Source: Gammaproteobacteria bacterium (lineage in GTDB: Bacteria; Pseudomonadota; Gammaproteobacteria; Eutrophobiales; Eutrophobiaceae). Taken from it: a stretch of 64,000 bases of DNA. A program made the position numbers and the translations under genes. This document shows positions 1,237-58,662 of this stretch, in pieces; the stretch's first letter is position 1, and the number at the start of each line of letters is the position of its first letter. Below the pieces are notes generated by a model, which saw only the letters and a list, made by a program, of their open reading frames with translations, was not told the DNA's origin and did no database searches. Location: positions 1,536,001-1,600,000 of the forward strand of contig OZ220696.1 of NCBI GenBank assembly GCA_965116495.1, written 5' to 3'.

Positions 1237-1278
1237 TGATATTTGGGGTCAGAGCATTTAGTCTGACCCCAAATATCA
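1237..1278. repeat. GGGGTCAGA-type palindromic element
   Basis: 17-bp stem TGATATTTGGGGTCAGA / TCTGACCCCAAATATCA with 8-nt loop; its right arm supplies the TGA of the methyltransferase gene. Confidence 0.85.
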
Positions 1279-2322
1279 ATCAGTGAAAAGCGTTTCGTGG
1301 TGCTCCCTGAGAAACCTGGTGCGGTAATCCTTGACCACATCCTCAGCCCCCAGGACCGCATGCTTTGCAATATCCGGCGAGTACCGGCTTGCCGGGACTT
1401 CCTTACCAATCGCTTCGGCCATGGCCCGGACATGGTGCGGGGCGCCGCCGCAACAGACGCCGATATAGCGCACACCCAGGTCTCTGGCGGCCAGGGCAAA
1501 CTCCGCCATCTCAGAACGGGTCAACACGAACGGGTCCAGTTCTGCCGGGAATCCCGCTTCCCTGCCCTCCTGTTTCAGGTCGATAAAAGTCAGGTGATCC
1601 GTATCAGTCCGGTAGGCAACAGGTAGCGCCGCAACGGGACACTGGACGCTTTCGACGACCTTGGCCAATACCGGCAGCAAGGTGGCCGGTCCCCGTCCGC
1701 AATTCAATCCCACCACGTCGGCGCCTTTATCACTCAAGATCCGGCAGGCATCGTCAAAGGCATAGCCGTCCGCCGTCGTGGGTGTCACGGCCGTAAAGGT
1801 AATCACGGCAGGCAGGTTGTAACTATTGATCACGTCGAGTGCAATGTCTGCTTCCGCAAACCAGTCGAAGGTTTCCGCCACGACGTAATCGACACCCTCA
1901 TCCACCGCCCAGGAGAGTTGCTCCTCGTACATGGCGCGTACCTGCTTGCCGGTCTCCAGCGGGTTGCCGGGATCATAGACCCAGGTATTGCAGATATTCG
2001 CGGCGACCAGCTTGCCCGACTCGCGGGCCACCTCCCCGGCCAACCTGACGGCCTGGCGGTTCAACCTTTCGGCATCGAGTTCACGTCCCACTACTTTCAT
2101 CTTGTCCCGGTGTGCATAGTACGTCAGCGCCAGCACCACGTCCGAACCTGCGCGCACGAATTCCCGGTGCAATTCCTTGACTGCCTCGGGAAAATCGAGC
2201 ACCACCTCAGGTACATATGGGCCTGATTTTACATAGCCCCGCCGTTCCAGTTCGAACACATAGCCTTCGGCGCAGATGAGGATGTCATCTTGCAGTTTTT
2301 CGAGAAGAGTATTTGTATCCAT
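1276..2322 (-). CDS. Betaine-homocysteine S-methyltransferase-like protein (homocysteine S-methyltransferase family)
   Basis: EGYVFELERRGYVKSGPYVPE..HREFVRAGSD resembles BHMT; Zn ligands GLNC and GVCCGG; ATG at 2322 preferred over TTG at 2346. Confidence 0.85.
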   Translation of the reverse strand: MDTNTLLEKLQDDILICAEGYVFELERRGYVKSGPYVPEVVLDFPEAVKELHREFVRAGSDVVLALTYYAHRDKMKVVGRELDAERLNRQAVRLAGEVARESGKLVAANICNTWVYDPGNPLETGKQVRAMYEEQLSWAVDEGVDYVVAETFDWFAEADIALDVINSYNLPAVITFTAVTPTTADGYAFDDACRILSDKGADVVGLNCGRGPATLLPVLAKVVESVQCPVAALPVAYRTDTDHLTFIDLKQEGREAGFPAELDPFVLTRSEMAEFALAARDLGVRYIGVCCGGAPHHVRAMAEAIGKEVPASRYSPDIAKHAVLGAEDVVKDYRTRFLREHHETLFTD

Positions 2323-2372
2323 TGTTTCCAACCTTTTAAAAGTCAAAATTGTAAAATCAATGTAACATTGAT

Positions 2373-2439
2373 GGGGTCAGAGTAAAATCTTAAGGAACAT
2401 TGCCGATGGCAGGATTCGGGGTGATTTTACTCTGACCCC
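2373..2439. repeat. 67-bp GGGGTCAGAGTAAAATC inverted-repeat element, copy 1
   Basis: GGGGTCAGAGTAAAATC-33 bp-GATTTTACTCTGACCCC. Confidence 0.9.
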
Positions 2440-3546: not shown

Positions 3547-3561
3547 TCAGAAATCGCGCCC

Positions 3562-3713
3562 CGTTCGTCATTCCTGCGAATGCAGGAATCCAGTGGGCAA
3601 TAAAACTCCTCATAAGGAGTGTTTTTTCACTGGATTCCCGCTTGCGCGGGAATGACGGACGAGAAGGAATGTTTTTTCACTGGATTCCCGCCTGCGCGGG
3701 AATGACGAACGAG
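3562..3713. repeat. Cluster of three CGTC-tagged REP/dRS3-like units
   Basis: CGTCATTCCTGCGAATGCAGGAATCCAG followed by two inverted copies CTGGATTCCCGC(T/C)TGCGCGGGAATGACG in 50-bp tandem. Confidence 0.9.
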
Positions 3714-3733: not shown

Positions 3734-3826
3734 GGGGTCAGAGTAAAATCACCATCAATCCTGCCATCGACCTCGATAATGGCGATTTTACTCTGACCCC
3801 ACCTATCTGGTTTTTAGTCTGACCCC
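3734..3826. repeat. 67-bp GGGGTCAGAGTAAAATC element, copy 2 (3734-3800, inverted relative to copy 1) plus an extra TCTGACCCC half-site at 3818-3826
   Basis: Same 17-bp arms and 33-bp spacer length; spacer core AATCCTGCCATCG is the reverse complement of CGATGGCAGGATT in copy 1. Confidence 0.9.
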
Positions 3827-5236
3827 ATTGATTTTGACAATGAGCTGGTGGGTGATCAAGCCCGCGATGAAGCTGGGGGCTGCTTCGAGGACATGCTGAC
3901 TCAGCCCGAACTGGCGCCAGAATAATGCCGTCAACAAGGCCGCTGCGAGTCCGACGAGCAGCGCAGATACCGAGGTGCGCCAGCGCATCAAGGTTATAAA
4001 AAAGGCCAGACCGACAGTTCCCCCCAATGCTGATGCCGTCATGACAATGACGTCGAATACATTGGTGCTGCCCCTGAGGAGAATAGCGGCTGTACCTACG
4101 GCACAGGAAACGAAAATTGTAACCATGGCCTGGTAGCGCAAGCCGAAGCGCCTGGTCATGCGCTGGTAAAACCCCGGAGATACATCCACGGCAAACGAAC
4201 TTGATACCACCAGTATCTGCCCGTCCAGCGTGGATGCTACCGATGCGAAGATCCCTGCCATGACCGCGCCACTGATTACAGGATGGAGGTAATCCTGAGA
4301 AAACACCGGCAATGCCTGCTCCGGATCTCCAATCTCCGGCAATAACACGTTCATCAGCAAACCGAAAAGGCTCATACTCCACCAGGTCGCCTGCATGAAG
4401 CCCATATAAATCCAGCGGCTTTTTACCGCTTCTTCCGGACTTCTGGCAGCCATGATGCGCACGAGCAGGTTGGGGGTACCCATATTGAAAGTGAAAGCCG
4501 CGCCCGCAAATCCCGAGAAAAACAGCAGCGAGAGCCACCAGGACTGCCCGACCTTGAAAGACAGCAATTCCGGATGCGTCGATTGCAGCGTTTCAAGCAA
4601 CTGCGCAGGACCGCCGCCAAACCAGGTGGCTACTGAGAGCATGCCTATCGTAGTCATAAGCATCACCAGCGCCTGAAAGAACTGTGTAGGTATCGACGAC
4701 TCGAGGCCACCCTTCGCCGAATAGGCCAGTATTACCACCCCGGATATGATTATCGCGGCCGGCGTGGAAACGTCAAAAACGACGCTGACGGCTTTCCCCA
4801 CTGCCAGGTACTGGCCCACTGCATAGCCGCCAACGAGTACGATAATGGCAACGGCCAGGTATTTCCTGATTACGGAATCCCGACGTTCGGTGGCACTCTC
4901 GCTGATAAATTCAGGGACAGTGTTACAGTTATGGTCACGGGAGCGCCGGTTAATACGACCGGGGAATAAATTCCAGAACATCAGGTCGCCAAAAAACCAG
5001 CCCAGGGGCATCATAAGCGCGAGCACGCCCATGGTATACCCGGCGCCGACCGCCCCGATCATGATAAAACCGCTTACTGCCGAAGACGCGGCGCTCAAGG
5101 CAACCATGAACCTGCCGTGCGTGCGGCCGGCCATCAGGTAATCCTCGACGCTGTGTTTCCGTTTGCGCCTGGCGGAGATATTGCCCACCGCCACCATGAG
5201 CATGATAAAGAAGCAGAAACTTAGCGCTATAGCCAT
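3803..5236 (-). CDS. Sodium:solute (proline-type) symporter, SSS family
   Basis: 477 aa polytopic; DYLMAGR..ALSAASSAVSG; ASVASTLDGQILVVSS. Confidence 0.88.
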   Translation of the reverse strand: MAIALSFCFFIMLMVAVGNISARRKRKHSVEDYLMAGRTHGRFMVALSAASSAVSGFIMIGAVGAGYTMGVLALMMPLGWFFGDLMFWNLFPGRINRRSRDHNCNTVPEFISESATERRDSVIRKYLAVAIIVLVGGYAVGQYLAVGKAVSVVFDVSTPAAIIISGVVILAYSAKGGLESSIPTQFFQALVMLMTTIGMLSVATWFGGGPAQLLETLQSTHPELLSFKVGQSWWLSLLFFSGFAGAAFTFNMGTPNLLVRIMAARSPEEAVKSRWIYMGFMQATWWSMSLFGLLMNVLLPEIGDPEQALPVFSQDYLHPVISGAVMAGIFASVASTLDGQILVVSSSFAVDVSPGFYQRMTRRFGLRYQAMVTIFVSCAVGTAAILLRGSTNVFDVIVMTASALGGTVGLAFFITLMRWRTSVSALLVGLAAALLTALFWRQFGLSQHVLEAAPSFIAGLITHQLIVKINGVRLKTR

Positions 5237-12220: not shown

Positions 12221-12253
12221 GTTTGTTGCTCACTTGTTTGAATTTGGGTTTTT

Positions 12254-12340
12254 TTACTCTGTGCCGGCATGAATCACATAACTCTCAGCAAAGGCAGCAG
12301 TGCTCAGTAATAGCACAACAACGGTAAGTAAGTGTTTCAT
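12254..12340 (-). pseudogene. N-terminal stub of a secreted protein, probably an amidohydrolase
   Basis: MKHLLTVVVLLLSTAAFA-ESYVIHAGTE*: signal peptide plus VIHAG strand, GGAG RBS, truncated after 28 aa. Confidence 0.55.
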
Positions 12341-12361: not shown

Positions 12362-12385
12362 GGGGACAGAATTAATTCTGTCCCC
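12362..12385. repeat. GGGGACAGA-type perfect palindrome
   Basis: GGGGACAGAATTAATTCTGTCCCC. Confidence 0.85.
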
Positions 12386-20124: not shown

Positions 20125-20505
20125 CTAAAAAAACAGGGCTGGACTTATATTGAATCGTTTACTTAATGCTTCAATATGATTACGCGTCAGCCTGCGTTCA
20201 CCGCTTAATATTCTGGATACCAGTGATTTACTCCCAATCTCCGGCAGGTCGGCTACCCCGGGTTTATGTTGTTCCATAATGACTCTCAGCGTTGTTATAC
20301 CACCGTTGAGTTTTTCAATACGGTCATTGAATGATTTAAACTCGGGAGATGTATCCTCCCAGCGAGCGATAGAAGCAGAAAGCATGTCAATAAGTGGTTT
20401 TTGGTTATCGTAATCCTCCATCAATTCATCCATAAGGGCCAAAGCCTGTGCATAGTCAGCCTCGTTGCTGATAATGAACTTCTGCATCTCATTCCACCCC
20501 GGCAT
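20125..20505 (-). CDS. HigA-type HTH antitoxin (orphan)
   Basis: NEADYAQALALMDEL..DLPEIGSKSLVSRILSGERRLTRNHIEALSKRFNISPALFF; start overlaps the hsdR end and is uncertain. Confidence 0.8.
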   Translation of the reverse strand: MPGWNEMQKFIISNEADYAQALALMDELMEDYDNQKPLIDMLSASIARWEDTSPEFKSFNDRIEKLNGGITTLRVIMEQHKPGVADLPEIGSKSLVSRILSGERRLTRNHIEALSKRFNISPALFF

Positions 20506-33361: not shown

Positions 33362-33392
33362 AGCCATTTGAACAGCTGCTCAGATTGCGTAA

Positions 33393-34237: not shown

Positions 34238-34249
34238 CTGGCGTCCATT

Positions 34250-39643: not shown

Positions 39644-42600
39644 TCAGAACAGGAAGTCGGTTGCGTCCAGGTTGGCCATGTCGAACCCGACCAGCAGGAT
39701 CGTGCCGCCGCCGTGGCTTGACAGGTCTATAGTTATTCCACCGGGAACGGATGCTCCACCAGGATAGTAGGACAGGTCCAGAGCCTCAAACCCAGGCAGG
39801 TTGAAGGCGCTGAGGTCTATTTTGTCCTTGTTATCGATGAAGGAATGGATGCCGTCGTCTCCATGGCCTGCGTCGAAGACAAAGACATCGGGGTTTCCTG
39901 CACCGTCTGCCTCACTCGACCACGAGGGCGCCCCTCCGTATAACTCATCATCTCCGGCGCCACCGTTCAAGCGGTCTGCGCCGGCGCCGCCCATCAGAAA
40001 ATCATCGCCGGCGCCCCCATTGAGCTCATCGTCACCATCGTGACCCAGCATGCGGTCGTCACCTTCATCCCCATGGAGGTAGTCGTTTCCACCATCTCCC
40101 AGGAGCAAATCACCACCGTCATTGCCGTAAATCTCATCATCGCCGGCGCCCCCCGCTAGAGTATTAGCGTTTCCATCTCCATACAAAACATCCGCAAATT
40201 CAGAACCGGATACTCCCTCAATACCGGTGAGAACATCACCCTCGGCATAACCGTCTTTGGCGATACCTTCCAGCAGGTTCACCATTACACCTGTATCCGA
40301 ATTCCAATAATCGGTTGTATCAATGCCATCGCCTCCATCCAGTTTATCAGCGCCAGCGCCACCGGCCAGCCAGTCATCACCACCATTGCCCCGGATATCA
40401 TCATTCCCGCCCAAGCCTTGAAAACCATTATTCTTGTGATTACCAATCAGTACATCGCCGTAATCAGTGCCATCAACAATTTCAACATTCCTGATAATAT
40501 CCCCCTCTGCGTGACCACCCTTGCCGGTGCCTTCCAGGAGGTTGACCGTCACGGCTGCGTCTGATTCCCAATAGCCTACCCAGTCGCCGGCGCCGGCGCC
40601 GCCCTGTAACCGGTTGGCGCCTGCATCACCTCTCAAATTATCATCGAAGCCAGACCCGGTTACGTTCTCAATACTGGTAAGGACATCACCCTCCGCAGCA
40701 CCCCCTCCAGTATTTCCATACTTCAGATCGACAAACACGCCTGCATCAGAGTCCTCATAAAGCGCCGAGTCAACACCACTGCCACCGTCCAGCCGGTCTG
40801 CGCCGGCGCCGCCCTGCAATACATCATCACCACCATTGCCGTACAACTCATCCGCACCATCCAGCCCATACAACACATTGCCAACCCCATCACCCCGTAA
40901 TACGTCGTCGTAACCCGATCCCGCCAGGTTTTCAATCGCAGTAAGCACGTCTCCCTCGGCATCCCCACCCCCCACCGTACCCGTTGCAAGGTTTATTCTT
41001 ACCCCTGCACTCGAGCCCAAGTAAGAGGCCCAATCAATACCCCTGCCCCCATCCAGCCGGTCAGCGCCCGCATTGCCGTATAACCAGTCATCACCGTCGC
41101 CGCCGTGTAACGCATCATCACCGTCATCCCCATGCAAGCTGTCAGCACCCGCACCACCGAACAGTTTATCCCGGTCCGCGCCCCCGTGCAGTTCATCATC
41201 GCCCCCATCACCATACAGGACATCCACACCGGCCTCACCAAAGAGTTGGTCATGGCCAGCGCCCCCCTGCAACTCATCATTGCCCTCATTGCCGCGCAGC
41301 TCGTCAGCGCCCGTGTTACCAAGAAGATAGTCCGCACCCGCACCACCGTGTAACACATCATCACCCCCGGCGCCCTCCAGACGATTTGCGCCGGCATCAC
41401 CCGTCAGGCTGTCCCGGTAGGCAGAGCCTGTTACGTTCTCCATACCCGTAAACGTATCTCCCTCGGCATAACCGCCTGCCGCCGTGCCCGCGGCCAGGTC
41501 CACCCGTACTCCTGCCACGGATAAGCGGTAGGACAAAGTGTCCGCGCCTGCTCCTCCATCCAGGCGGTCGGCGCCGGCGCCCCCTGCCAGTACGTCATCA
41601 CCACCGTTGCCACGCAGTTCATCAGCGCCCCCGTTACCGGCCAGCTCATTGGCGCTGTCATCACCTGTCAGCACATCCGGGAGGGCAGACCCAGCGATAT
41701 TCTCAATCCCGCTGATGACGTCACCCTCAGCATGACCACCGGCGACCGTATTGTTGTAGAGGTCAACCGTCACGCCCGTGTCCGAACGTAGGTAGACCAC
41801 CCAGTCCACCCCGCCCCCACCATCCAGCCGATCAGCGCCCGGCCCGCCTTCCAATGCATCGTTGTCGGCGCCACCCCGAAGCTCGTCATTACCCCCGACC
41901 CCGTGTAATTCATTGGGACCGTTGTCACCCGTCAACACGTCCCGATAATCAGACCCCGCGATATTCTCTATACTCGTCAGCGTATCGCCCTGGGCATGAC
42001 CACCGGCAACCGTGCTGTCAGCAAGGTTTACTGTTACACCCGCATCCGATGTCAAATAAACCGCCCAATCCAGACCGATTCCCCCATCCAACCTATCCGC
42101 GCCTGCGCCGCCTGCCAATCTATCATCTCCCCCGCTGCCCCGAAGTTCATCGTCACCCCCAAGGCCGTACAACTCATTGGCGCCCGCGTCACCCATCAAA
42201 ACATCCCGGTACTCAGAGCCCATCACATGCTCAATACCGGTGAATACATCACCTTGTGCATAGCCGCCCGTTAATGTCCCCTCCCCAAGGTTGACCGTGA
42301 CCCCCGTAGCCGACAACTCGTAGGACAACCCGTCCAGGCCGGCGCCCCCGTCCAATTGATCGACGCCACTGCTGCCCAACAGCCAGTCATCGCCATCCCC
42401 TCCCGCCAGAATATCCTCACCACCCGCACCCCAAAGCCGATCATCCCCTCCCCCGCCGTCCAACCTGTTGGTATTGCCATCACCCCACAACACGTCAGCA
42501 AAGCCCGACCCGCTCAGGTTTTCTATATTCTCAATCATGTCACCCTGCGCATCACCGCCCGCCGCCGTGCCTGCCGCCAGGTCTACCGTTACTCCCTCAT

Positions 42601-45055: not shown

Positions 45056-45130
45056 TTGCTCACCCCCTGTCTGAACCGAAAAGCGTCATTTTCATCCTGC
45101 TATTCATGTCTGTCGGCTGCTTGCGTTATT

Positions 45131-46396
45131 TTACGATCTGGATGGGCTTGCCACCTGTTCCGGGGCGCCTTCGGAGTTCTGGGCTGTCTGCTGCGAGGTA
45201 AGCGCGGCCGCGCGCTTGCTGGCCGCCAGCTCTGTCTGCACGTATGTCATCAGGCTGGGGATGCCAGGCTCACACAGATCATCGCCTGCCGGTTGCCAGA
45301 TATAGCCCAGGTTTGCGAGTTGGTCCAACTGCGCATCAGCCGTTTGTGCCGTTACGCCGGTTAGGGCAACCAGGTGATCTGACAGGTCCATGTAGCCGGC
45401 TGTTTCCTGTCCCACAAATGTACCGGCTACGGCGCCGGCGGCCTGCAGCAAGCCCTGTTTGCGCAGCTCGCGGAAACGATCTCCGTAGTAAGCGGTCCTG
45501 CTGGCCTCAAACCTTGGCCTGGCCGCATCGACAATACTTGCCTGCACACGGAAACGCATGGTGTCCACCATGGCATGGCACAGCGCTTCCCCCCAGAGTT
45601 GGATGAAGTAGGGGTAACGCTGGCTTTCCTGCACTACGCGGTCCAGGACATCCTTGTCAAAGGTGATATCTGCCTCAGCCAGCGGAGAGACCAGCGCCTC
45701 AACAGTAGCTTCCAGACTCAGGCGGCCAATGCCGATTTTTTCTGCCCGGTTCCAGAAGGTGGCGCTCATCTGATTCAAGTGATCTCTCAAATTTGGCGTC
45801 CCGGCGATGGCCAACAGAAAGGGAGCGCCCTGTTTGCGCACTTGCTGGCTGGCGTTCAACAGCGTATGACCCACCTCCGCGGCTAGCGTATGCGCCTCGT
45901 CCAGCGCTACTACCAACGGGCGTTTGCGGCAGCGGGCGACCAGCATTTGAACAAGATGGCGACGTTTGATGTTGTCCATCTGGTCAGGCGTCATACTGTC
46001 CCAGCGGGCGCCGATGGCCTGCAGGTCGATGCTGAGCCCGGAGGGAGTAATGGATGTCAGGAACTTCCCGATTACACTATCGTCATAGAGCAGGTGGCTT
46101 GCCAGATCGGTAACATTTCCAATCTCCGCGGGTGTCAGGTCCAGCGTGTCGGTGTCCTGATCTTCGCACTGTCGGCGGAAGGTTTCGAGCAGCACGGTTT
46201 TGCCGTTACCGCGCGGCCCATAGATCACTGCGTCGGCAGGCACCTGACGGTTACTCAGCAGGCGTTGCAGAAAGCCTTGCAACACACGCAAATCACCGTC
46301 CCTGCCAGCAAGCACAGGAGGCAGAGCACCGCTACCCGGCACAAACAGGCTCAGCAGGTTCTTTGTGAAGTCAGGGTCGATATAGCTCGTTGTCAC
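45131..46396 (-). CDS. AAA+ ATPase (AAA_16/ORC-like)
   Basis: FVPGSGALPPVLAGRD, GPRGNGKT, VALDEAH, YPYFIQLWG; GTG start 46396 inferred, 7 nt after TGcTATACT. Confidence 0.82.
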   Translation of the reverse strand: MTTSYIDPDFTKNLLSLFVPGSGALPPVLAGRDGDLRVLQGFLQRLLSNRQVPADAVIYGPRGNGKTVLLETFRRQCEDQDTDTLDLTPAEIGNVTDLASHLLYDDSVIGKFLTSITPSGLSIDLQAIGARWDSMTPDQMDNIKRRHLVQMLVARCRKRPLVVALDEAHTLAAEVGHTLLNASQQVRKQGAPFLLAIAGTPNLRDHLNQMSATFWNRAEKIGIGRLSLEATVEALVSPLAEADITFDKDVLDRVVQESQRYPYFIQLWGEALCHAMVDTMRFRVQASIVDAARPRFEASRTAYYGDRFRELRKQGLLQAAGAVAGTFVGQETAGYMDLSDHLVALTGVTAQTADAQLDQLANLGYIWQPAGDDLCEPGIPSLMTYVQTELAASKRAAALTSQQTAQNSEGAPEQVASPSRS

Positions 46397-46497
46397 AATG
46401 ACGAGTATAGCACGGTAAGACAACGACTTGCCCTCATACAGGGGCCGGCAGAAAAGCAAGTTGCTACGGAATTAAACTCCCTGATGCCTGCAAATTA

Positions 46498-49400
46498 TCA
46501 GAACAGGAAGTCACTCGCATCCAGGTTGGTGATGTCGAAATCGACCAGCAGGATCGTGCCACCGTCGTGGGCTGACATGTCTATTATGAGCCCAGATATG
46601 GACACATTTGGACGGGATGTGGCGGAGGACAGGTTGATATCATCAAATCCAGACAGGTTGAAGGCGCTGAGGTCGATTTTATCTTCATCGTTGACAAAGT
46701 AGATGGTATCGTCTCCATGGCCGACATCGAAGATAAACACGTCAACGCTTCCATCACTCTCATTAGACCACTCAATATGTCCGGCCAAGTAATCGTTTCC
46801 GACACCACCGTCTAAGAGGTCGGCACCAGCGCGGCCTATCAAGACGTCATGGCCTCTCCCCCCGTGAATATTATCATCGCCGTCGTATCCGAAGATGGAA
46901 TCATTACCCTCATCACCGTAAATGATGTCATCGCCGCCATATCCGAGGATGGCATCATTACCCTCACCACCGTAAAGGGTGTCATTGCCATCTCCCCCGT
47001 GGATTTGATCATCCCCCTCACCCCCATAGATGCTATCATTGCCGATAAGACCGTGCAGAAAGTCATCACCGCCATTGCCGTGCATCTCATCGTCACCAGC
47101 AAAGCCTAGCAGGGAATTATCGCTGTTGTCACCTGTCAATACATCTCCTTGATTGGAACCTCTTATGCTCTCAATATTGACAATCACATCACCTTCGGCG
47201 TGACCACCCTTGCTTGTACCCTCTTCGAGATTTATGGTCACTCCGGTATCCGAAGCCAGATATGATGCCGTATCGGAACCCCCACCACCGTCCAGCATAT
47301 CCGCGCCGGCTCCTCCAACCAGCCAATCATCTCCACCATTTCCGTGAAGCTCATCGTCTCCAGCATAACCGTAAAACGTGTTATTTTTGTGATCACCAGT
47401 CAATACATCTTTGTAATCAGTACCACTAACGTCCTCAACACCTGTAATAACATCCCCTTCTGCACTACCTCCCTTGCCGGTACCGTCCAAGAGGTTGACT
47501 GTGACACCCACATCTGACGGCAAATAGTCTATCCAGTCTATCCCTTCACCTCCGTCCAACCGATCAGCGCCGCCGCCACCATGAAGTCTGTCGTCGCCAG
47601 CGCCCCCTACAAGGTGATTAGCGCCGTCATCACCTCTTATTGCATCTGCATAATCAGTGCCAATCACATTCTCAATACTTCTGATCACGTCACCTTGCGC
47701 ATGACCGCCTTCAACCGTATTCTCTACCAGATTGACGATGATGCCTTGGTCCGAATCCTCATACGACAGCGTATCAATACCCTCTCCGCCGTCCAACTGA
47801 TCGGCCCCAGCGCCACCCTGTAATACGTCATCACCAGCATTGCCGTACAACTCATCCGCGCCGTCCAACCCATATAACATATTGCCAACCCCATCACCCC
47901 GTAACACGTCGTCGTAACCGGAACCCATCAGGTTTTCAATCGCAGTGAGCACGTCTCCCTCGGCATCCCCGCCCCCCACCGTACCCATCGCAAGGTTTAT
48001 TCTCACCCCTGCGCCCGAGCCCAAATAAGAGACCCAGTCAAGGCCCCTGCCCCCATCCAGCCGGTCGGCACCCGCATTGCCGTATAACCAGTCATCGCCG
48101 GCACCGCCCTCCAACTCGTCATCACCGTCATCCCCATACAAGCTGTCAGCACCCGCACCACCGAACAGTTGGTCTTTATCTACTCCCCCGTGCAGTTCAT
48201 CATTGCCCCCATCACCATGCAGGACATCCGCGCCCGCGCCACCGTGTAATGCATCATCACCCCCGGCGCCCTCCAGACGATTTGCACCGGCATCACCCGT
48301 CAGGCTATCCCGGTAACCAGAGCCTGTTACGTTCTCCATACCTGTAAACGTATCCCCCTCGGCATAACCGCCTGCCGCCGTGCCCGCGGCCAGGTCCACC
48401 CGTACTCCTGCCACGGATAAGCGGTAGGACAAAGTGTCCGCGCCTGCTCCTCCATCCAGGCGGTCGGCGCCGGCGCCCCCTGCCAGTACGTCATCACCAC
48501 CGTTGCCACGCAGTTCATCAGCGCCCCCGTTACCGGCCAGCTCATTGGCGCTGTCATCACCTGTCAGCACATCCGGGAGGGCAGACCCAGCGATATTCTC
48601 AATCCCGCTGATGACGTCACCCTCAGCATGACCACCGGCGACCGTATTGTTGTAGAGGTCAACCGTCACGCCCGTGTCCGAACGTAGGTAGACCACCCAG
48701 TCCGGCCCGCCCCCACCATCCAGCCGATCAGCGCCCGGCCCGCCTTCCAATGCATCGTTGTCGGCGCCACCCCGAAGCTCGTCGTTGCCTCCTGCGCCGT
48801 ACAGTTCATTGGCTCCACTGTCGCCAGTCAATATATCCTCATAACCAGACCCTGCGATATTCTCTATCCCGGTAAACGTGTCACCTTGTGCATGACCGCC
48901 AACCGCCGTGTTGTCAGCCAGATTCACTGTTACACCCGCATCCGATGTCAAATAAACCGCCCAATCCAGACCGGCACCCCCATCCAATCGGTCTCCACCG
49001 GTGCCGCCCTCCAGCACATCGTCGCCTTCATTGCCCCGAAGTTCATCGTCACCCCCAAGGCCGTACAACTCATTGGCACCAGCATCACCCGTCAATACAT
49101 CCCGGTACTCAGAGCCCATCACATGCTCAATACCGGTGAATACATCACCTTGCGCATCACCGCCCGCTGATGTCCGCTCCCCAAGATTGACCGTGACCCC
49201 TGCAGCCGACAACTCGTAGGACAACCCGTCCAGGCCGGCGCCCCCATCCAACTGATCGATGCCACTGCTGCCTAACAACCAGTCATTGCCATCTCCTCCC
49301 ACCAGAACATCCTCACCACCCGCGCCCCAAAGCCGATCATCCCCTCCTTTGCCTTCCAACCTGTTGGCATTGCCATCACCCCGCAACACGTCAGCAAAGC

Positions 49401-51954
49401 CCGACCCGCTCAGGTTTTCTATATTCTCAATCACGTCACCTTGCGCATCACCGCCCTCTGCCGTGCCTGCCGCAAGGTCTACCGTTACTCCCTCATTCGA
49501 ACCTTGATAAGAGGCCCAGTCCAACCCCGCACCGCCATCCAGCCTGTCGCCGCCGCTGCCTCCCTCCAGCCGATTGTCCTCATCGTCACCCACCAGCACA
49601 TCATCGTGGGCAGAACCAATGATGTTCTCAATCTCAGTCAATACGTCTCCCTCGGCATGACCGCCCTCTGCCGCGCGTTCCGCCAGGTTAATTGTTACCC
49701 CTGCATCCGAATCACGATACGCCGCCCAGTCCATCCCCGCATCCCCGTTCAGACGGTCCGCGCCGGCGCCACCTTGCAGGATGTCATCACCGCCACTGCC
49801 CCAAATCCGGTCATTGCCTGCACGCCCGTTCAGGTCGTTGGCAATCGCATTGCCGGCAATCAGGTCATCTCCGGAACCGGCAATAACGTTCTCTATCCAG
49901 GTATCCCGTGCAATAATCACGTTCCCAATCAGGCCGTATACATCGGAGATACCTTCCGGACGCAGGTAGATGCGCTGGTCGTTCGTATCCGTGCGCACGT
50001 CCAGAGTATCGGTGCCGCCGTTGTCGTAAATCGTGAAGGTGGTTGGTCTAGCGAGGCTTTGGGGTGAAAATTTGGGGTTCTCCACTGTGCCGGTATTTTT
50101 ATAATAAGCAATGACGCCATCCTGATTGCCAACAATGAAGTCAAGATTGCCATCACCATTCAGATCACCAAATTCAATCCCAAGAAAAAAACCTGCATTG
50201 ATTCCTTGGAAAGGATTATCAAAATCTCTGCGCTGGGTGAAATCCGGCTCGGTTGTTGTGCCGGTGTTCTCGAAATAGAGGACGCCACCACCTCTATTCC
50301 CGACGATGAGGTCAAAATCGTCGTCATTATCAACATCGACAAATACGGGCGAGTTATAAGAGCCTTCATTGATGTTGTTAAGAGGACTGGACGTACCGGT
50401 CCGTAATGCAAATTCAGGATTGGTCTTCGTGCCGGTGTTCTCATAGTAAGGAACGTCACCGTCATTGGTGCCGACAGCAAGGTCACTATCGCCGTCGCCA
50501 TCCAGATCTGCAAATGCGAGTGTGCTCCATGATCCCATTGTGATATTGCTAAACGGATTGGCCGCGTCGGAGCGTTGTATAAAGTGGCCAGAGGTCGCAG
50601 CGCCGGTATTCTCGAAATAAGCGATAGCATCATTGCCATCACCAACGATGATGTCCAGGTCACCATCGCCGTCAAGGTCGGTGAAGGTCGGGGCGCTGTA
50701 AGACTGCACCGAAATGCCCTCCAAAGGGTTGTTTACGCCGGTGCGTTCCGTAAAATCAGGGTTGGCAGGCGTACCGATGTTTTCAAAGTAATACAGCAGG
50801 CCAGTGTTATTACCGCCCACAAGGTCCAGGTCACCATCACCGTCAAGGTCGGCCAATGCCAGCTTAAGAGCTTGATGATCAACGTTACTTGGCACTTCTA
50901 CACTGAAGAAGGGATTTTCCTCCCCGGTCCATAATCTGAAGTATTCACCCAGGTAACCGTCCACGTTAGATTGGTAGCCGTAAATGGTATCGCCTGTGTT
51001 GATTGTGTCAGGCACACCGTAAAGATCCTGGATGGCGATGATGTCCACTATCATTGGAGTGACAGATTCAGCAGAGCTTGCTCTCAAGTAGGTGTTATCA
51101 CCTTGGTTTACATACGACATTATCGACAGCTGATCAGAGTCATTCACGAAGATGTTGTGATAGCCGTAATAAAATGGACTGCCGTTGTAGGGACCGGGAT
51201 GACCGAGGCCGAGAGCATGACCAGTTTCATGAAAATAGACATAGAAGGTGTAACTATCAATCGTTGTTCCATGCTCAATGAGATGGAATTCCGGAACACT
51301 CACCATCGAAGATTCGATAAGCCCATCACCGTGTACAACTCCCGCGTGTGCCCAATCTAAATCATCAGTAAATGTAATATGGGCAGTATCATCATCGACA
51401 AACTCGAAAGTAATGCTGGTGACGCTGTCCCAAGCCTCAATTGCCCATCGGGCTAGTCGTTGACCCTCTTCAGTCAGGGCGGTGATATTAACGGTCAAAC
51501 TACCGCCAGGTTCAACGTCAAAAGCGATCCTTGAGCCCCAGTAGCCATCGGTCAGATACCCGGCAATCTCGTCATAACTACCCACAGGGATGGTGTTTTC
51601 AGTGAGAGCAAGCTCATAGACACCCGTGACAGCATCATCGTAACTGCCTACCCCGAGATAATACGTCCCACTGACACTCGGACTGAAGATCAGCTTTGTG
51701 CCGGAGGGAGTGTAGCCACCAGAGACTATCCAGTTCCCGGAAGCATCAAACAGCGCCAATTCGGCCGAATCGACATCCTCAACGGTAAAGCCGAGAGTAA
51801 AATCGTATATCGTCTCCGCGCTCAGTTCGACCTTGATCCAGTCTTTGTCACCCCCTGAATCGAGCGTTCCCTGAAATATGTCTCCCAGCGAAATCGTGTA
51901 AGAGGTTCCAGCAGCCGCACCGGCATCGCCTCTGTCTTCTTTAATCACGGCCAT
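46498..51954 (-). CDS. Giant secreted protein B, paralog of A (M10 + FG-GAP + RTX)
   Basis: HETGHALGLGH, SIMSY, FG-GAP and RTX repeats, C-terminal DFLF. Confidence 0.92.
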   Translation of the reverse strand: MAVIKEDRGDAGAAAGTSYTISLGDIFQGTLDSGGDKDWIKVELSAETIYDFTLGFTVEDVDSAELALFDASGNWIVSGGYTPSGTKLIFSPSVSGTYYLGVGSYDDAVTGVYELALTENTIPVGSYDEIAGYLTDGYWGSRIAFDVEPGGSLTVNITALTEEGQRLARWAIEAWDSVTSITFEFVDDDTAHITFTDDLDWAHAGVVHGDGLIESSMVSVPEFHLIEHGTTIDSYTFYVYFHETGHALGLGHPGPYNGSPFYYGYHNIFVNDSDQLSIMSYVNQGDNTYLRASSAESVTPMIVDIIAIQDLYGVPDTINTGDTIYGYQSNVDGYLGEYFRLWTGEENPFFSVEVPSNVDHQALKLALADLDGDGDLDLVGGNNTGLLYYFENIGTPANPDFTERTGVNNPLEGISVQSYSAPTFTDLDGDGDLDIIVGDGNDAIAYFENTGAATSGHFIQRSDAANPFSNITMGSWSTLAFADLDGDGDSDLAVGTNDGDVPYYENTGTKTNPEFALRTGTSSPLNNINEGSYNSPVFVDVDNDDDFDLIVGNRGGGVLYFENTGTTTEPDFTQRRDFDNPFQGINAGFFLGIEFGDLNGDGNLDFIVGNQDGVIAYYKNTGTVENPKFSPQSLARPTTFTIYDNGGTDTLDVRTDTNDQRIYLRPEGISDVYGLIGNVIIARDTWIENVIAGSGDDLIAGNAIANDLNGRAGNDRIWGSGGDDILQGGAGADRLNGDAGMDWAAYRDSDAGVTINLAERAAEGGHAEGDVLTEIENIIGSAHDDVLVGDDEDNRLEGGSGGDRLDGGAGLDWASYQGSNEGVTVDLAAGTAEGGDAQGDVIENIENLSGSGFADVLRGDGNANRLEGKGGDDRLWGAGGEDVLVGGDGNDWLLGSSGIDQLDGGAGLDGLSYELSAAGVTVNLGERTSAGGDAQGDVFTGIEHVMGSEYRDVLTGDAGANELYGLGGDDELRGNEGDDVLEGGTGGDRLDGGAGLDWAVYLTSDAGVTVNLADNTAVGGHAQGDTFTGIENIAGSGYEDILTGDSGANELYGAGGNDELRGGADNDALEGGPGADRLDGGGGPDWVVYLRSDTGVTVDLYNNTVAGGHAEGDVISGIENIAGSALPDVLTGDDSANELAGNGGADELRGNGGDDVLAGGAGADRLDGGAGADTLSYRLSVAGVRVDLAAGTAAGGYAEGDTFTGMENVTGSGYRDSLTGDAGANRLEGAGGDDALHGGAGADVLHGDGGNDELHGGVDKDQLFGGAGADSLYGDDGDDELEGGAGDDWLYGNAGADRLDGGRGLDWVSYLGSGAGVRINLAMGTVGGGDAEGDVLTAIENLMGSGYDDVLRGDGVGNMLYGLDGADELYGNAGDDVLQGGAGADQLDGGEGIDTLSYEDSDQGIIVNLVENTVEGGHAQGDVIRSIENVIGTDYADAIRGDDGANHLVGGAGDDRLHGGGGADRLDGGEGIDWIDYLPSDVGVTVNLLDGTGKGGSAEGDVITGVEDVSGTDYKDVLTGDHKNNTFYGYAGDDELHGNGGDDWLVGGAGADMLDGGGGSDTASYLASDTGVTINLEEGTSKGGHAEGDVIVNIESIRGSNQGDVLTGDNSDNSLLGFAGDDEMHGNGGDDFLHGLIGNDSIYGGEGDDQIHGGDGNDTLYGGEGNDAILGYGGDDIIYGDEGNDSIFGYDGDDNIHGGRGHDVLIGRAGADLLDGGVGNDYLAGHIEWSNESDGSVDVFIFDVGHGDDTIYFVNDEDKIDLSAFNLSGFDDINLSSATSRPNVSISGLIIDMSAHDGGTILLVDFDITNLDASDFLF

Positions 51955-51999
51955 TTATCAGCCCGTCCCCTCTGCCTGAATTCAAACAACAGCGCTTTT

Positions 52000-52138
52000 T
52001 ATTAGACCATATACGATGAAACTTTGGAATGTAGTCTTCCAGGAATTCACGCTTGTAGCCGACAGGCTCCCGTTCATAAATCGGACGGCGTACATAGTCC
52101 CGGAAGGCGAGGCTAGAATCGAAGTCGATATCAATGAG
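52000..52138 (-). pseudogene. Short gene remnant, possibly from a Fic-family protein
   Basis: Start-less frame reads LAFRDYVRRPIYEREPVGYKREFLEDYIP; resemblance recalled, not verified. Confidence 0.35.
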
Positions 52139-52159
52139 CTATAGGCAGCCCAGGGTCTT

Positions 52160-54078
52160 TCAGAAGATAAAGTCGTTCTCATTAATCAGCGCGGCGTCTA
52201 CTCCTGTCAGGGTGACTTGACTGTCCGTGTCTGTCACCTGAACCACCGCATCGCCATCGCTGTTGTTTGACACGGTCAGGTCGGCATACTGCAAGTCCAG
52301 GGCAGTGAAGTCCATCAGGTCGGTCCCATCTTCAAAATCCGTTATCCGGTCCTGACCAAAGCCCGGGCCCGTGAACGCGAACTCTTGCTCCGACGCAGGC
52401 TCGCTCTCGAGCGCATCCCCCGCCTCCCGATTGATGAACACAAAATCGTCCTCTCCCACCTGCCCGGCATCAACGCCTGCCAGAACGATGGCGTCCTTTG
52501 TGCCATCCACGCTTATCACGGCGCTACCGCCGGCGTTGTTCGCGACCGACAAGTCACTCCACTGCAGGCCGTGCAGCTTCAGCAGATCGGTTCCATCCTC
52601 GAAATCGCCGATGCGGTCCCGGCCAAAGCCCGGTTGCTCATAGACGAAAAAATCCGCACCCTCACCACCGTAGAGAATATCCTTGCCCTCGCCCCCTTGC
52701 AGACGGTCCCGGCCATCGCCGCCATACAACTCATCGTTGCCGTTCTCACCCCAGAGCTTGTCCCGGCCCTTGCCGCCATACAAGGTGTCATGGCCCTTGC
52801 CGCCATACAGCCGGTCATTCCCCACACCGCCGTACAAGGTGTCTGAGTGTTTATCACCCCAGAGACGGTCATTGCCGGCGTTGCCATGCAGAATGTCATT
52901 ACCCAGGTTGCCCGATATCCGGTCATTGTTACCCAGACCTTCAATGCGGTCGTCCCCGGCCAGACCGTTGATGACATCGGCGCCGGTCGTGCCGCTCAGC
53001 CGGTTCGCTTCCGAGGTGCCATTGATAACCGTTCTGGCCGGTGCGGGCGCCTTCGGGTCGTCGAACACGAAACGGTCGGCGCCGGCCCCACCGGTCATCA
53101 CGTCGTTGCCCGCCCCCGCGATCAGGACGTTATCGGCCTCATTGCCCGTCAAACTATCATTGCCACTGCCCGACGTGGCATTCTCGATCACCACACCGTT
53201 GGCGATGACATAGCCACCAGGGATTTTCCATGCCCAGGAAACGTAGCCCCCGCCGCCGGGTTCATACTCAAGCGTGGCCGCGCGCAAGTCGATCACGGCA
53301 TTGGCGGCGCCTGTGTACTCAATCGTGTCAATCCCGCCGGTATCCCAGATAGCGTGATAGCCGTTTGCCGCCGCGCGGGTGGCGGCCATTGTGTAAACGT
53401 CATCGCCCGCCGCGTGGGTGGTGTTGGCGCCATACATGTTTTGCAGGGCGGCAATGTCCAGTGCACCAAACGTGGCAATGGCAGAGCCATCGCCTGGATT
53501 GTCTGGGCGGCCGTTCCAGCTACCGTTATAGGTGCTGTTGTACGATGTCACGGTGAATATCGTCTGGTCCAGCCCGTAACCGGCTTTTATGACCTTGGTG
53601 GAGTTGCCCGTATCATGCGGGTGGCCCAAGCCCAGACCATGCCCTATTTCATGGATGACGGTGAGGTAGAACCTCCCTCCCTGGTCGAATTGGCCGCCGG
53701 GTTTATCACTCCAGTCGCGGTCTCTGGTGTTTGCCATGCCTTCCTTGCCATCGCCGTTAATGGGGAAACGAAACTGACCCGATTGCAGGCCGCGGCCAAT
53801 GTGTTCACCACCCAGAATTATGCTGTTCTCTTTGCTGCCATCGAAAACCCCGAATTTGAGGTCGGCAGAATCCCAATCCGTGGTGAGCTGGAAATCAACG
53901 TTGATAAAGGTTTCCAGATTTTCGAAGACCAGATTTGGGTTTTCTCATAGTCGGTCATATTACGGGCGTGGTACCACTGCATCGCAAGGTCACCTTCCTT
54001 GAATAAATACACCAGGACCGGACCCGATATATTCAGCTTGTGTTTTCCCTCAATGGCGTCAACAGGTTTATCGCTCAT
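52160..54078 (-). pseudogene. Serralysin-like M10 protease D with RTX repeats, frameshifted near 53930
   Basis: ATG 54078 (GGAG RBS) MSDKPVDAIEG..YEKTQIW switches frame to VFENLETFINVDF..EGMANTRD; HEIGHGLGLGH; Met-turn reads TVTSY; ends DFIF. Confidence 0.8.
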
Positions 54079-54442
54079 AATCATCTCCAGCCGTGGTGCT
54101 ACAGGCGGCTTCAGGACAGGGCGGGCGGTTCTAGCATAAATATCACTCCAGTCCACCCGGTTTGCGTCTTCGTGCCGCGTATGCGGCGGGGGGATAACAT
54201 CATGGCTGATCGCCGAAAGACGGTTCCGGTCAAAGCGCACAGGCGCAGGCGACCGCAGTAACCGATACAGCCCCGTACTCAGTGCGGGGCTTTTGAACTT
54301 TGCCCTCATCCTTCGGCACTATCGTATATAATTCCCCAATAAAACATGAAATTATGCGGCAGCCGGAACCGATACCAGCACCAGTATGGCTCCGGGCTAT
54401 GACTTTTAGTGAATGGGACGAGCGTGTGGGGATTAACGAGAT

Positions 54443-57400
54443 ATGGCTACTATCAGAGAGAACAACGGTGATGCATCGCCAAATTCCGGAACTCAATACG
54501 AGCTGTCTGTCGGAGATGTATTTGAGGGAAAGCTGAACCCCGTCAGCGACAAGGACTGGCTTCGCGTCGAACTGGCCGCCGGGACGATTTACGACGTTAT
54601 TCTGAATGGCGTCTATTCGGCCCAACTCACCATCCTCGATGCACAGGGTAATGAGATGGCCTACGGCGTCAGTAACTTCGATTACACGAAAATCAAGATA
54701 TTCACCCCGGATGCCAGCGGCACATATTACATCGGCATAGCCAGCAGCAATGCCGAGCACACGGCTAACTACCAGTTATCGTTTGACGAGAATCCGATCA
54801 CAACCGTCAGCCATGATGTGATTGCCGAGTATATGTCAAGTCGCTGGCCCAATGAGCAGGCTTTTGACGTGGTGTCCGGTGGTGTACTGACCGCCGATAT
54901 CACTGCCCTGAACGAAGCAGGACAACAACTGGCCCGCTGGGCGCTGGACGCGTGGAGTAACGTTTCCGGCATCACGTTTAAATTGGTTGCTGACGATGAT
55001 GCCCACATTACCTTTGACGACAACCAGGACAACGAAGCGTCTGCAACCGCCAATCGCAGCACCAGTGAAGGTTTCATCGTGTCTGCGCGGATCAACGTGC
55101 CGGCGAGCTGGATCCCCGACGACGGGGCCAGGATGGACAGCCATGTTTTCTATGCTTATTTGCATGAGATCGGCCATGCCCTCGGCCTTGACCACCCGGG
55201 CCCTTACAACGCGAATTACCTGGCTTTAATCGACAAGATATTCCTGAATGACACGTACCAGACAACGGTGATGTCATATTTTCGCCAGGACCATGACCAG
55301 TTCGTAGACGCCAGTTTTGCCTATCCCGTGACACCGATGGTCGCGGATATTATCGCGATACAGGGCCTGTATGGCGTACCCGATGACCTTAATCCGGGTG
55401 ATACGATTTACGGCTATGGCGCCGATGTCGAAGGCTACCTGGGCGAACTGTTCGAGCTTTGGACCGGCGAGGGGGATTCATCTTTCGAAAACCCCGTCAC
55501 TCTGACGCTGTACGACAGCGGTGGTATCGATACCCTGGATCTGCGCACCGACAGCGCCGACCAACAGGTTGACCTGAGACCCGAGAGGTTCTCGGACGTG
55601 TACGGTCTGGTCGGTAACCTGATCATCGCGCAGGACACGTTGATAGAAAACTTCATCAGTGGATCCGGGGATGACGTAGTGACCGGTAACGATGCCGCGA
55701 ACTACCTGCAGGGACGGGACGGTAACGACGATCTGAGCGGCGGCCGCGGCGACGATGTGCTGGAAGGCGGCGCCGGCGCGGACCGGCTGGATGGGGGCCC
55801 CGGTACGGACTGGGCGTCCTACCACGGGTCGAATACTGCTGTGACAATCGATCTTGGGCAGAAAACGCTGACCGGAGGCCATGCTGAGGGCGACGTGCTG
55901 GTCAATATCGAGAACATCATCGGCTCTGGTTATGCCGATGTCCTGACCGGGAATGACGGCGCCAACAGCCTGGAAGGGGGTGCGGGCGCGGACCGGTTGG
56001 AAGGGGCGCCGGTGAGGATACCGCCTCGTACGCGCAGTCGGCTGCCGGGGTGACCGTGCGCCTGCACTCGGGTGAGGTACGGGGCGGTGACGCCGTAGGC
56101 GATACCTTCGCGGCGATGGTGACGGTCGAGTATATTGACGGTGACGGTGACACCCGGCAGGAAACCGTTCCCGACATTGAGCATCTCCTGGGCTCGAAGC
56201 ACGCCGATACCCTGGCCGGCGACAGCCGAGCCAACCGGCTGGCAGGGGGCGACGGGGATGACAGGTTGTACGGCGGTCCCGGAGGCGGTGATGATGTGCT
56301 GCTGGGCGGACCCGGCGCCGATGCCCTGTTTGGCGGTATCGGTGACGATGTAATGGAAGGGGGGGCGGATGCGGACACGCTCAGAGGCGGGCCCGGCGCC
56401 GATACGGCTTCGTATGCGCAGTCGGCTGCCGGTGTTGAAGTCCGTCTGTATGACGGTACGGTCAAGGGAGGTGATGCCGAGGGGGATGTGCTGGATGGGA
56501 TTGAGAACCTGACCGGGTCTGCTTATGCGGACACCCTGGAAGGTGATAGTAGCGCCAACCGCCTGGACGGCGGACCCGGGATAGACTGGGTATCCTACCG
56601 GGGCTCGGATGCGGCGGTGACGGTGAAGCTCAGGGACGGCACCGGGGCAGGCGGTCATGCCGAGGGTGATGCCATTGTCAACGTTGAGAATGTAGCAGGC
56701 TCTGATTACAACGACGTGCTGGGAGGCGACAGTGGAGCCAACCATCTCGCAGGTGGGGACGGCAATGACGGGCTCTGGGGCAGCAGTGGCGATGACGTCC
56801 TGGAGGGGGGCGCGGGGACAGACCGGATGTTCGGCGGTATCGGTGTGGACTGGGTGATTTATACAGGCTCGGATGCAGGGGTGACGGTGAACCTTGAGGA
56901 CGGCACCGGGGCAGGCGGACACGCCGAAGGCGACACCATTGCCGAGGTTGAGAATGTAAACGGATCCGGCTTCAACGACGTGCTGCAAGGCAATGAAGGT
57001 ATCAACCGGCTGAACGGTGGTGACGGCGACGATGAGCTGGAGGGCGGCGAGGGTGACGACATCCTGGAAGGTGGCGCAGGCGCCGACCGATTGGATGGCG
57101 GTAACGGGATTGATACGGCAATTTATCAAGCTTCAGATGCGGCAGTGACGGTGAATCTCGGCACCGACACGGCGGCCGGAGGCCATGCACAAGGCGATGT
57201 GTTTACCAGCATCGAGAGAATCATCGGTTCAATATATGGCGATAACCTGGTTGGGGGGAGCGGCATTGATCGGCTTGATGGTGCTGAGGGTGACGATGTA
57301 CTGCAAGGCGGCGACGGCGGCGACCGGCTGGACGGCGGTGCTGGTTCGGACACGGTAAGCTATCGGAATTCAACTGCAGCGGTAACAGTGAACTTCGGCA

Positions 57401-58584
57401 ATGACACATTTGCCGGCGGCCATGCCGAGGGTGATACGGTCGTCAACGTCGAAAATCTGGAGGGATCGAACTACGATGATGTGCTGACCGGCGACAGCAA
57501 CGCAAACCGGCTGTACGGCGGTGAGGGCAACGACATCCTGGAGGGTGGTGCGGGTATCGACCGGCTGGATGGCGGACCGGGGGTGGACACGGTGTCATAT
57601 GAAAACTCCAGTGATGGGATATTGGTTAACCTGCTGTTCAACAAGGGTTCGCTAAATGCCTACAACGACAGGAGCGAAGAAATTGTCAATATCGAAAACG
57701 TGATTGGGTCTGAATACTGGGATTCCATCAGGGGAGACAGCGGTGAGAATGATTTGTACGGTCGTGCCGGCAACGACGATCTTAATGGTGGAGCAGGTAA
57801 CGACAGACTGTTTGGTGAGGATGGTGAAGATCAGCTATGGGGGTTGACCGGCGCCGACCGGCTGGATGGTGGAGATGGTGTAGATATTGCGGTTTACTGG
57901 GTTTCCGACACTGCAGTAACCATAAGCCTCGAAGATGGGACGGGACAAGGTGGCCATGCCGAGGGCGATGTGCTGGTCGCCGTGGAAAATCTCTGGGGGT
58001 CCGACCACGATGATACGCTGTCCGGCGATAGCGGCGCCAACCGTTTGTACGGCGGCAAGGGCAACGATGATCTGCGTGGCAACGGCGGCAACGACATACT
58101 GGAAGGTGATGTTGGCGCAGACCGGCTGGACGGCGGACCGGGTATGGACATGGTCTCTTACAGTTTGTCAAATGAAGGCGTAACGGTAAAGCTGGGGGAA
58201 GACGTCATAGAAGGGGGTCATGCCGAGGGCGACACATTCGTCAGCATAGAGGGTATAGAGGGGTCCGGCTATGATGACATACTGGCAGGCGATAACGGCG
58301 CCAACAGACTGGCGGGTGGATACGGTGATAATGTATTGGAAGGTGGCGACGGGCCGGATCAATTCATCTTCGATTGGGTCAACGGCGACGACACCATCCT
58401 GGATTTCGCCGATAATGAAGACCTCATAGACCTCAGCGCAACCGACCTATCCGGTTTTGATGCGCTTATCCTGTCATCCGACTCCAACGGCGTGACGATA
58501 CACATGACGACGTCAGGCGGCGGGTCGATATTTCTGGAGGGCTTCGACATCGCCAACCTCGACGCATCGGACTTTATCTTCTGA
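54443..58584 (+). pseudogene. M10-RTX paralog C without the FG-GAP insert, split by a 1-nt frameshift at 56003-56006
   Basis: HEIGHALGLDH, TVMSY; adding one G to GAAGGGGCGCC restores EGGAGEDTASYAQSAAGVTV and joins the two ORFs (~1380 aa); ends DFIF. Confidence 0.85.
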
Positions 58585-58662
58585 CCTGCAACCATTCTCA
58601 AATCAATAACAGAGGTAACTTGCCTGCAAACAGAGTAAAACATTCTGACCCAGGTAGATTAC

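Follow-up and report, generated by a model that had tools for sequence, protein, structure and literature searches.

Palindromic repeats of a gammaproteobacterial gene island are TIRYT/TIRtron hairpins rather than an integron-like capture system

The stretch of DNA analysed here, referred to as the window, comprises 64,000 nucleotides (G000:C1:1536001-1600000) of the 4.34-Mb single-contig genome G000 and carries GGGG(T/A)CAGA palindromes at several gene junctions and truncation points. A first-pass annotation had proposed that a trans-acting Y1 (HUH) transposase uses these palindromes to exchange single genes. The palindromes are terminal-inverted-repeat (TIR) hairpins of the TIRYT/TIRtron family, and they mostly decorate conserved spacers rather than form an integron-like capture system. 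The explanation that is probable when taken as a whole is that they are REP/MITE-like miniature elements built from the inverted ends of TIRYT-type Y1 transposase genes, that most of the window hairpins arrived later, their cognate enzyme gene having since been lost from G000, and that genes are occasionally deleted or captured locally, near an intact enzyme gene. Hairpins would come and go in spacers of conserved gene order, and gene deletion or capture would be occasional and confined mainly to the neighborhood of an intact transposase gene.

The repeat family and its transposases

Every string cited in the first-pass annotation is present at its coordinates by direct sequence check, and the five cited hairpins fold as long stems. 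The motif GGGGWCAGA occurs 12 times in the window with 1.25 expected, a count reached by none of 100 shuffles, and 328 times in G000, where 43-63 copies are expected under Markov models of orders 3-5. Inverted pairs of the motif no more than 150 bp apart number 161 and are scattered along the whole chromosome; the repeats are therefore a genome-wide family and not a feature specific to the island. The comparison set consists of 22 congeners of G000 (23 genomes in all), the nearest of which is 88% identical over the rpoB region; for one window protein, the closest named database records are from uncultured Gammaproteobacteria. Subtypes were set by the bases following the core: A (GGGGTCAGGTCGC), B (GGGGTCAGAG), C, and rarer ones. 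Subtype C comprises short GGGGAC(A/G)G hairpins, with longer variants that include a hairpin at 29467 of the window. The window itself holds subtype-B and subtype-C hairpins plus older remnants. Exact B arms (GGGGTCAGAGTAAAA) range from 0 to 541 copies per genome and are present in 20 of the 23 genomes. Tandem partial arms are frequent, and several B copies begin exactly after the last base of another repeat family.

One intact Y1 gene flanked by GGGGW-type repeats is present in G000, as the annotation had suggested looking for, but its arms are of a different subtype from those of the window. The gene (C1:403444-404465) lies between inverted A arms, 1.13 Mb from the window. Its product matches PF01797 above the cut-off, and H-Y-H and Y-I-V-L-N-P are conserved in the alignment; the C-terminus matches HTH_7 and HTH_28 at E 0.003-0.006, below the Pfam cut-offs. 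Further Y1 material in G000 consists of a deletion derivative of the A-type gene and IS200 pieces. Among the congeners, Y1 genes with B-subtype flanks occur in G015, G016, G018, and G008, and those with C-subtype flanks in G016 and G008. The association of GGGGWSAS inverted repeats with Y1/HUH transposases given in the annotation is borne out by these genes, which stand between such arms. No enzyme matching the window arm subtypes was found in G000, where congener protein queries match only the A-type gene, and no Y1 gene flanked specifically by the subtype of the 29467 hairpin was found among the genomes searched.

The TIRYT/TIRtron family was described as a Y1/HUH gene between GGGGWSAS inverted repeats, the repeats also being dispersed as singles, dimers, and clusters (accessible text of Di Nocera, De Gregorio, and Rocco 2013, PMC3733652). 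The Y1 gene of G000 between its inverted GGGGWSAS repeats has the same build, and the window-hairpin family is likewise dispersed as singles, dimers, and clusters with a common TIR core. Compared with the TIRtrons of that text, at least five arm subtypes coexist here in one genus, and the B- and C-type enzyme genes have a whole hairpin on either side. No mention is made there of empty sites, flanks that mirror each other, deletions alongside, or passenger genes, all of which are seen here. Most TIRYTs have been equated with subclass 2.1 of TnpA-Y1 (accessible text of Quentin et al. 2018, PMC6006769), and the G000 enzyme shares with this subclass, as outlined there, the class-2 Y---NP, the HuH, and a C-terminal helix-turn-helix (HTH)-like extension. 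It departs from the subclass in that its HTH matches stay below the Pfam cut-offs, and the B- and C-type enzymes of the congeners are shorter and have no HTH match in the Pfam scan.

A second comparison is with the REPIN/RAYT and REP/TnpA-REP systems, in which non-autonomous hairpin doublets, tandem clusters, and long palindromic singlets lie downstream of genes, and in which TnpA-REP cuts single-stranded DNA on either the 5' or the 3' side of the repeat and performs strand transfer (PMC3337134 and PMC8266576, in their accessible portions). The window family also forms hairpin doublets and clusters downstream of genes. In contrast with the systems as portrayed in those portions, no GTAG tetranucleotide was found beside the repeats, whose flank consensus differs (GATATTT for B and AAT for A); the scores against NF047646 are 67-72, short of its cut-off of 80; the arms are not themselves palindromic, the hairpin forming between two arms; and the nick sites are predicted. 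A subclass-2.1 TnpA-REP enzyme associated with prochlorosin genes has been proposed to diversify its neighboring genes, and the same authors later found no strong evidence for or against causation (10.1101/2020.03.09.984088, available text). Relative to that text, the present case offers junctions mapped to the base at TIR ends, at one locus.

The hairpins are gained and lost within orthologous spacers. Among 115 subtype-B sites of the congener G032 that lie in conserved spacers orthologous to G000, 72 are empty in G000, 19 hold half an element, and 24 are shared; for 49 subtype-C sites of G000, 25 are empty in G032. The flanks mirror each other in a manner specific to each copy. Mirrored flanks of at least 5 nt accompany 26 of 40 and 12 of 14 subtype-A pairs, compared with 3% and 8% when partners are shuffled, and 62% of 163 B pairs in G032 (41% shuffled); the excess was not seen for 41 B pairs of G000 (10% versus 6%). 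No uniform short target-site duplication was seen in the alignments of empty and filled sites that were inspected. A long target duplication, suggested as a general signature of hairpin insertion by a few cases, was rejected by a survey of pairs in which it accompanied 0-5% of hairpins and about 1% of controls; one of the early cases lies between paralogous genes.

Gene gain and loss at the TIRtron locus

Gene gain and loss at repeat ends, part of the original proposal, does take place at one locus outside the window and does not extend to a general system. In the five congeners compared (5/5), an MFS gene runs directly into a VOC gene, which gives the empty site. In G000, a 2.3-kb composite (C1:402094-404505) sits in the 3' end of the MFS gene. 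It consists of a deleted TIRtron, an orphan gene, and an intact TIRtron; TIR ends and a 34-bp target duplication (33/34 identical) delimit it. The orphan gene has 45% G+C and encodes an acidic product of 284 aa; a search of the 22 congeners at E 1e-45 found no match to it, no Pfam family reached the cut-off, and the Atlas gave no usable match. The read data consist of assembled contigs from four runs (at most two samples, one study), and one contig in each run spans the orphan gene from arm to arm. A joint skipping the composite was not seen in these contigs, which lose rare variants and are uninformative on excision; the other joints listed in them are other hairpin copies. Contigs over the TIRtron body (L004:1395-2414) have about twice the flanking depth in the four runs; they differ at two bases and show a second flank, which hints weakly at another TIRtron copy in the sample.

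The 1.03-kb TIRtron unit is also found in G001, G010, and G016 at 93-97% identity. The idea that it stands in unrelated flanks in the four genomes was rejected, as a single gene cluster houses or adjoins all four copies. G016 lacks the VOC gene from a point 6 nt beyond the right TIR, and its P450 gene is truncated 7 nt beyond a derived hairpin; the MFS gene of G001 breaks off 8 nt beyond the left TIR; and in G010 the TIRtron sits inside the MFS 3' end. G014 has lost VOC at an arm-like site with microhomology. To the left of the G001 TIRtron, short pieces (20-60 bp) copied again from the MFS and TonB-receptor sequence nearby form a patchwork between hairpins, which suggests repeated template switching.

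The deletions and the one passenger-gene insertion beside the intact transposase gene were likely made by the enzyme. By analogy with cleavage and strand transfer by TnpA-REP and with REPIN excision, we infer a nick position and a role for template switching. The enzyme would nick single-stranded DNA 0-8 nt outside the GGGG end, and nicking would be followed by strand transfer and repair synthesis with template switching, the latter being the putative source of both mirrored flanks and tandem arms.

A further-reaching and tentative reading, for which the odds are rather poor, treats TIRYTs as local engines of gene gain and loss. Two TIR-ended units would move a passenger gene with a target duplication of about 33-34 bp, and single ends would drive adjacent deletions; the DUF6932-HTH cassette, amidohydrolase stub, and RTX remnant of the window, together with the small-gene toxin-antitoxin islands of the genus, would be relics from times when a matching enzyme was present. 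A candidate passenger unit is a 508-bp segment (L242:619-1126) with a gene for a 109-aa coiled-coil protein, 98% identical between G000 and G032 and bounded by B arms of the 67-bp type. In G034, the 5' remnant of a TIRtron has become fused with a toxin-antitoxin-like pair that in G000 follows a solo A arm. These two cases and the TIRtron locus were selected after the fact. The small-gene/toxin-antitoxin islands (G000:C1:4228000-4262000 and G032:C1:2181000-2188300) are duplicated and permuted among congeners at 90-98% identity. They also contain a 365-bp unit, present in many copies, with a gene of about 100 aa that belongs to no Pfam family.

Alternatively, the repeats could be wholly passive, with replication slippage or recombination of the ordinary kind, at strong hairpins and repeats, producing the TIRtron junctions, and the transposase copying nothing but hairpins. 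Microhomology at the amidohydrolase join in the window and at the VOC deletion of G014 is in keeping with this account, as is the fact that long target duplications could also arise from circle integration by short homology, for which the DUF6932 cassette of G008, located in a tRNA-Leu repeat, offers a parallel. It is nonetheless unlikely, given that, around the enzyme gene, no fewer than five independent junctions from four genomes map to within 8 nt of the outer end of a TIR, and that the hundreds of hairpins of like strength elsewhere are found at breaks less often than expected.

Gene order at the repeats

The original proposal holds that a trans-acting Y1 enzyme uses the hairpins and their partial copies to insert, delete, or swap single genes. 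The window shares with integrons a mosaic of small accessory genes, some of which are bounded by repeats. Unlike an integron, the window has no array with one site per gene, and gene order is conserved across most repeats. A Pfam scan of the 43 window proteins, which covered the window and not the rest of the genome, found no tyrosine recombinase among them. Genome-wide tests of G000 were made against one congener, G032, over 2.4 Mb (69% of the G032 chromosome) at about 83% identity, with genes predicted by a simple gene caller of our own.

Arms are depleted, not enriched, at breaks in gene order. Among anchored junctions with arms, 57/184 (31%) in G000 and 80/287 (28%) in G032 are non-conserved, compared with 465/996 (47%) and 381/845 (45%) of control junctions in repeat-free spacers of at least 40 bp; unanchored junctions were excluded (121 and 17 with arms, 1117 and 270 controls). 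Stratified by orientation and net length, the odds ratios for non-conservation at arms are 0.68 (p 0.03) and 0.51 (p 2e-5). A local-neighbor control points in the same direction, with 54 broken arm junctions where 70.6 were expected and 80 where 115.5 were expected. The predicted enrichment of breakpoints within 20 nt of the motif is not borne out either: 35 of 764 gene-scale alignment ends lie that close to an arm of either genome, and the summed nulls are about 9% for random spacers and 7% for gene ends. An end within 20 nt of an arm was recorded for 157 of 906 small collinear gaps.

The remaining tests agree. Truncation ends at arms stay at the null level (7/109, 4/108, and 0/34; 11/251 in total), and six of the seven matches in G032 are B elements abutting another repeat family and not truncations. 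A homologue in G000 is missing for 4 of 74 genes that have an arm on each side, compared with 496 of 1626. Segments flanked by direct repeats are not enriched in arms (3/63 and 2/25, with null means of 2.0 and 1.25). Integron-like enrichment was thus rejected, none of the five tests (junctions, alignment ends, truncations, two-sided genes, and direct-repeat segments) being positive. As a general system, the integron-like mosaic does not hold, with synteny continuing across the hairpins and breakpoints not enriched at them.

What speaks for the proposal is the presence of arms at the end of the amidohydrolase deletion, at the edge of the DUF6932 cassette, on both sides of the RTX remnant, and in the spacer between mazEF and an oxidase gene, as well as the one real TIR-bounded passenger composite in G000 and the 508-bp segment with B arms at its bounds. 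Set against these are the gene order that relatives share across the full hairpins of the window, the depletion of arms at breakpoints, the direct-repeat-flanked segments without arm enrichment, and the failure to find a cognate enzyme in G000. Furthermore, 7-10% of random spacer positions have a core with one mismatch no more than 15 nt away. The proposal is accordingly improbable in its general form.

That the hairpins are host-selected transcription terminators or mRNA stabilizers, their position at gene ends reflecting that function only, accords with their strong stems and with the 41-57% of pairs that lie within 30 nt downstream of a stop codon (13-15% of control positions), yet it is very improbable, because a run of at least four T beside the stem accompanies just 0-14% of pairs (33% for subtype C in G032), a result that also goes against the terminator-only alternative in the annotation, because most orthologous sites are empty in other species and the hairpins are hence dispensable, and because identical arms flank Y1 genes. 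The hairpins could still have a secondary REP-like effect on mRNA.

The explanation of the repeats as miniature TIRYT-end elements, with occasional gene deletion or capture near an intact enzyme, has several observations weighing against it. Four window junctions (12252, 29467, 33264, and 58631/58745) coincide with arms. Breaks are more frequent at solo than at paired arms in G032 (15/25 versus 65/262, p 0.0006), an excess not repeated in G000 (19/54 versus 38/130). The small-gene/toxin-antitoxin islands also have arms, solo ones among them, at several module ends. The B-type enzyme has no match in the B-rich congeners G032, G003, G034, and G002, which carry hundreds of B copies, so the link between subtype and enzyme is one of flanking position. 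Moreover, the genome-wide tests compare a single relative, and decayed old arms may escape detection.

Sites in the window and their wider meaning

Across each of the six full hairpins of the window, relatives have the same gene order, clearly so for five. The first, a short subtype-C hairpin at 8-32, was not in the first-pass annotation, and the alignment with G032 runs continuously across it. The second, at 1237-1278, is a short hairpin of subtype B (1245-1270); its 8-nt flanks are mirrored, and it was inserted immediately downstream of the native stop of a homocysteine methyltransferase gene. The MFS-methyltransferase order is kept in all seven loci compared; the 1245 element is common to three, the site is empty in three, and the remaining locus has a separate insertion a few bases away. 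The copy at 1237 had been thought to supply a stop codon, a claim that does not stand, in that the TGA at 1276-1278 is native and the element-free site of G001 has the same last codons and stop. A 67-bp subtype-B hairpin at 2373-2439 separates the methyltransferase and AraC genes, and G007 has the same order with an empty site. A related 67-bp subtype-B hairpin in inverted orientation lies at 3734-3800, and the AraC-symporter order occurs without it in G005, G007, G004, and G009. Beside these hairpins, at 3566-3710, are REP-like hairpins of a separate CGTC type, with many copies in G000 and its congeners. Another repeat family of 268 bp with CTAG ends (G000:C1:1867709-1867977 and about 12 other places) is shared with G032 at 88-96%, and one of its copies lies in the flank of a B hairpin.

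Partial copies had been placed at breakpoints, and their record is mixed. The older arm remnant at 3818-3834 (minus strand; GGGGTCAGACT subtype) does lie within the last codons of the symporter; it is not a breakpoint, with arm-like sequence in G005 and G007 and the AraC-symporter order kept in the four relatives that have both genes. The degenerate arm at 12252-12265 (minus strand) in the RidA leader is a true end of the amidohydrolase deletion, which left a 5' stub of 26 native codons (12254-12340, minus strand) of a gene that is complete in G001 (426 aa). Its arm-like letters, however, are the inherited RidA leader, found in both RidA loci of G001, and the deletion join has about 3 nt of microhomology. 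A short subtype-C hairpin follows at 12362-12385; in G008, the amidohydrolase start stands beside a Rieske gene and the hairpin is absent.

The GGGGACAGATTTATTTTT hairpin at 29467-29549 fills the spacer from the mazEF promoter to the stop of a multicopper oxidase gene. The same adjacency occurs in G015 with a shortened arm, and other DNA is found at four other mazEF loci and at 11 oxidase loci. It is the best candidate for a junction among the full hairpins, although both homology limits also match the promoter edge and the stop codon. At 20489-28608 lies a Type I restriction-modification cluster; a GmrSD-like nuclease is embedded in it, and it also carries a RhuM fragment.

A cassette encoding DUF6932 and HTH_3 proteins (33259-34249, plus strand; 42% G+C) is inserted between two copies of a 33-bp direct repeat on the plus strand (33226-33258 and 34250-34282; 32/33 identical). 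The repeat is single-copy in the seven congener genomes examined, and the cassette is missing from the orthologous site in all seven. The insertion is real, and its duplication resembles the 34-bp one at the TIRtron composite; the label of a toxin cassette comes from the annotation, and Pfam gives DUF6932 and HTH_3. The degenerate arm at 33264-33277 does lie at the insertion edge, 6 nt inside it, and its match to the string at 2367 needs a one-base deletion. In G008, the cassette stands beside tRNA-Leu, within the tRNA-Leu repeat, with about 24 bp of the 33-bp duplicated sequence and an arm-like sequence upstream.

Toward the right end of the window lies a cluster of large RTX-repeat proteins (39644-58584). 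It includes two paralogues, each about 1800 aa long with repeats spaced at 264 bp, and an M10 protease-like gene, the repeat region of which runs on in the next frame at 56050. A degenerate mini-hairpin at 58631-58651 directly precedes a gene remnant (58652-58744), as had been annotated, and the remnant amounts to about 30 codons of the N-terminus of an M10/RTX-repeat protein. A solo arm that was not in the annotation closes it at 58745-58752 (minus strand). The solo-arm family of 58745-58795 numbers five copies. They share a conserved outer flank of about 45 bp, the partner that directly follows the core differs in all five, and the family may be the end of an unrecognized element. A tRNA-Ser(GGA) gene at 58897-58987 (minus strand) forms the right end of the variable island. 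Beyond it are a 210-bp non-coding segment (60500-60710), which recurs in many congeners at differing locations (75-88% identity) and has no Rfam match at the gathering threshold, and a DDE transposase insertion sequence (61280-62913) with five more near-identical copies in G000.

At the tRNA-Ser island, G032 has other genes, and its own hairpins lie in the collinear flanks. Some window segments are 93-97% identical in congeners that are only 81-85% alike at rpoB, which suggests recent interspecies exchange. The mosaic of the window is best explained as a tRNA-Ser-anchored island reshuffled by exchange among congeners and by microhomology deletions.

In a full-text search, the TIRYT name appears in 2013, when it was introduced, and otherwise only in the 2018 phylogenomic study, with no activity test reported in the text available for either paper (PMC3733652 and PMC6006769). 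The literature searched, mostly open-access, held nothing on point about passenger genes, adjacent deletions, or target duplications with these enzymes, though the figures and supplements of the two papers may bear on it. Assay substrates and predicted nick positions can be drawn from this genus, in which there are several enzyme-arm pairs, empty and filled sites by the dozen, and one locus whose junctions are mapped to the base. The window also serves as a negative control, in that abundant TIR hairpins beside a gene mosaic do not imply cassette capture. If the passenger composite was made by the enzyme, genes would be transferred by way of a widespread "domesticated" Y1 family.

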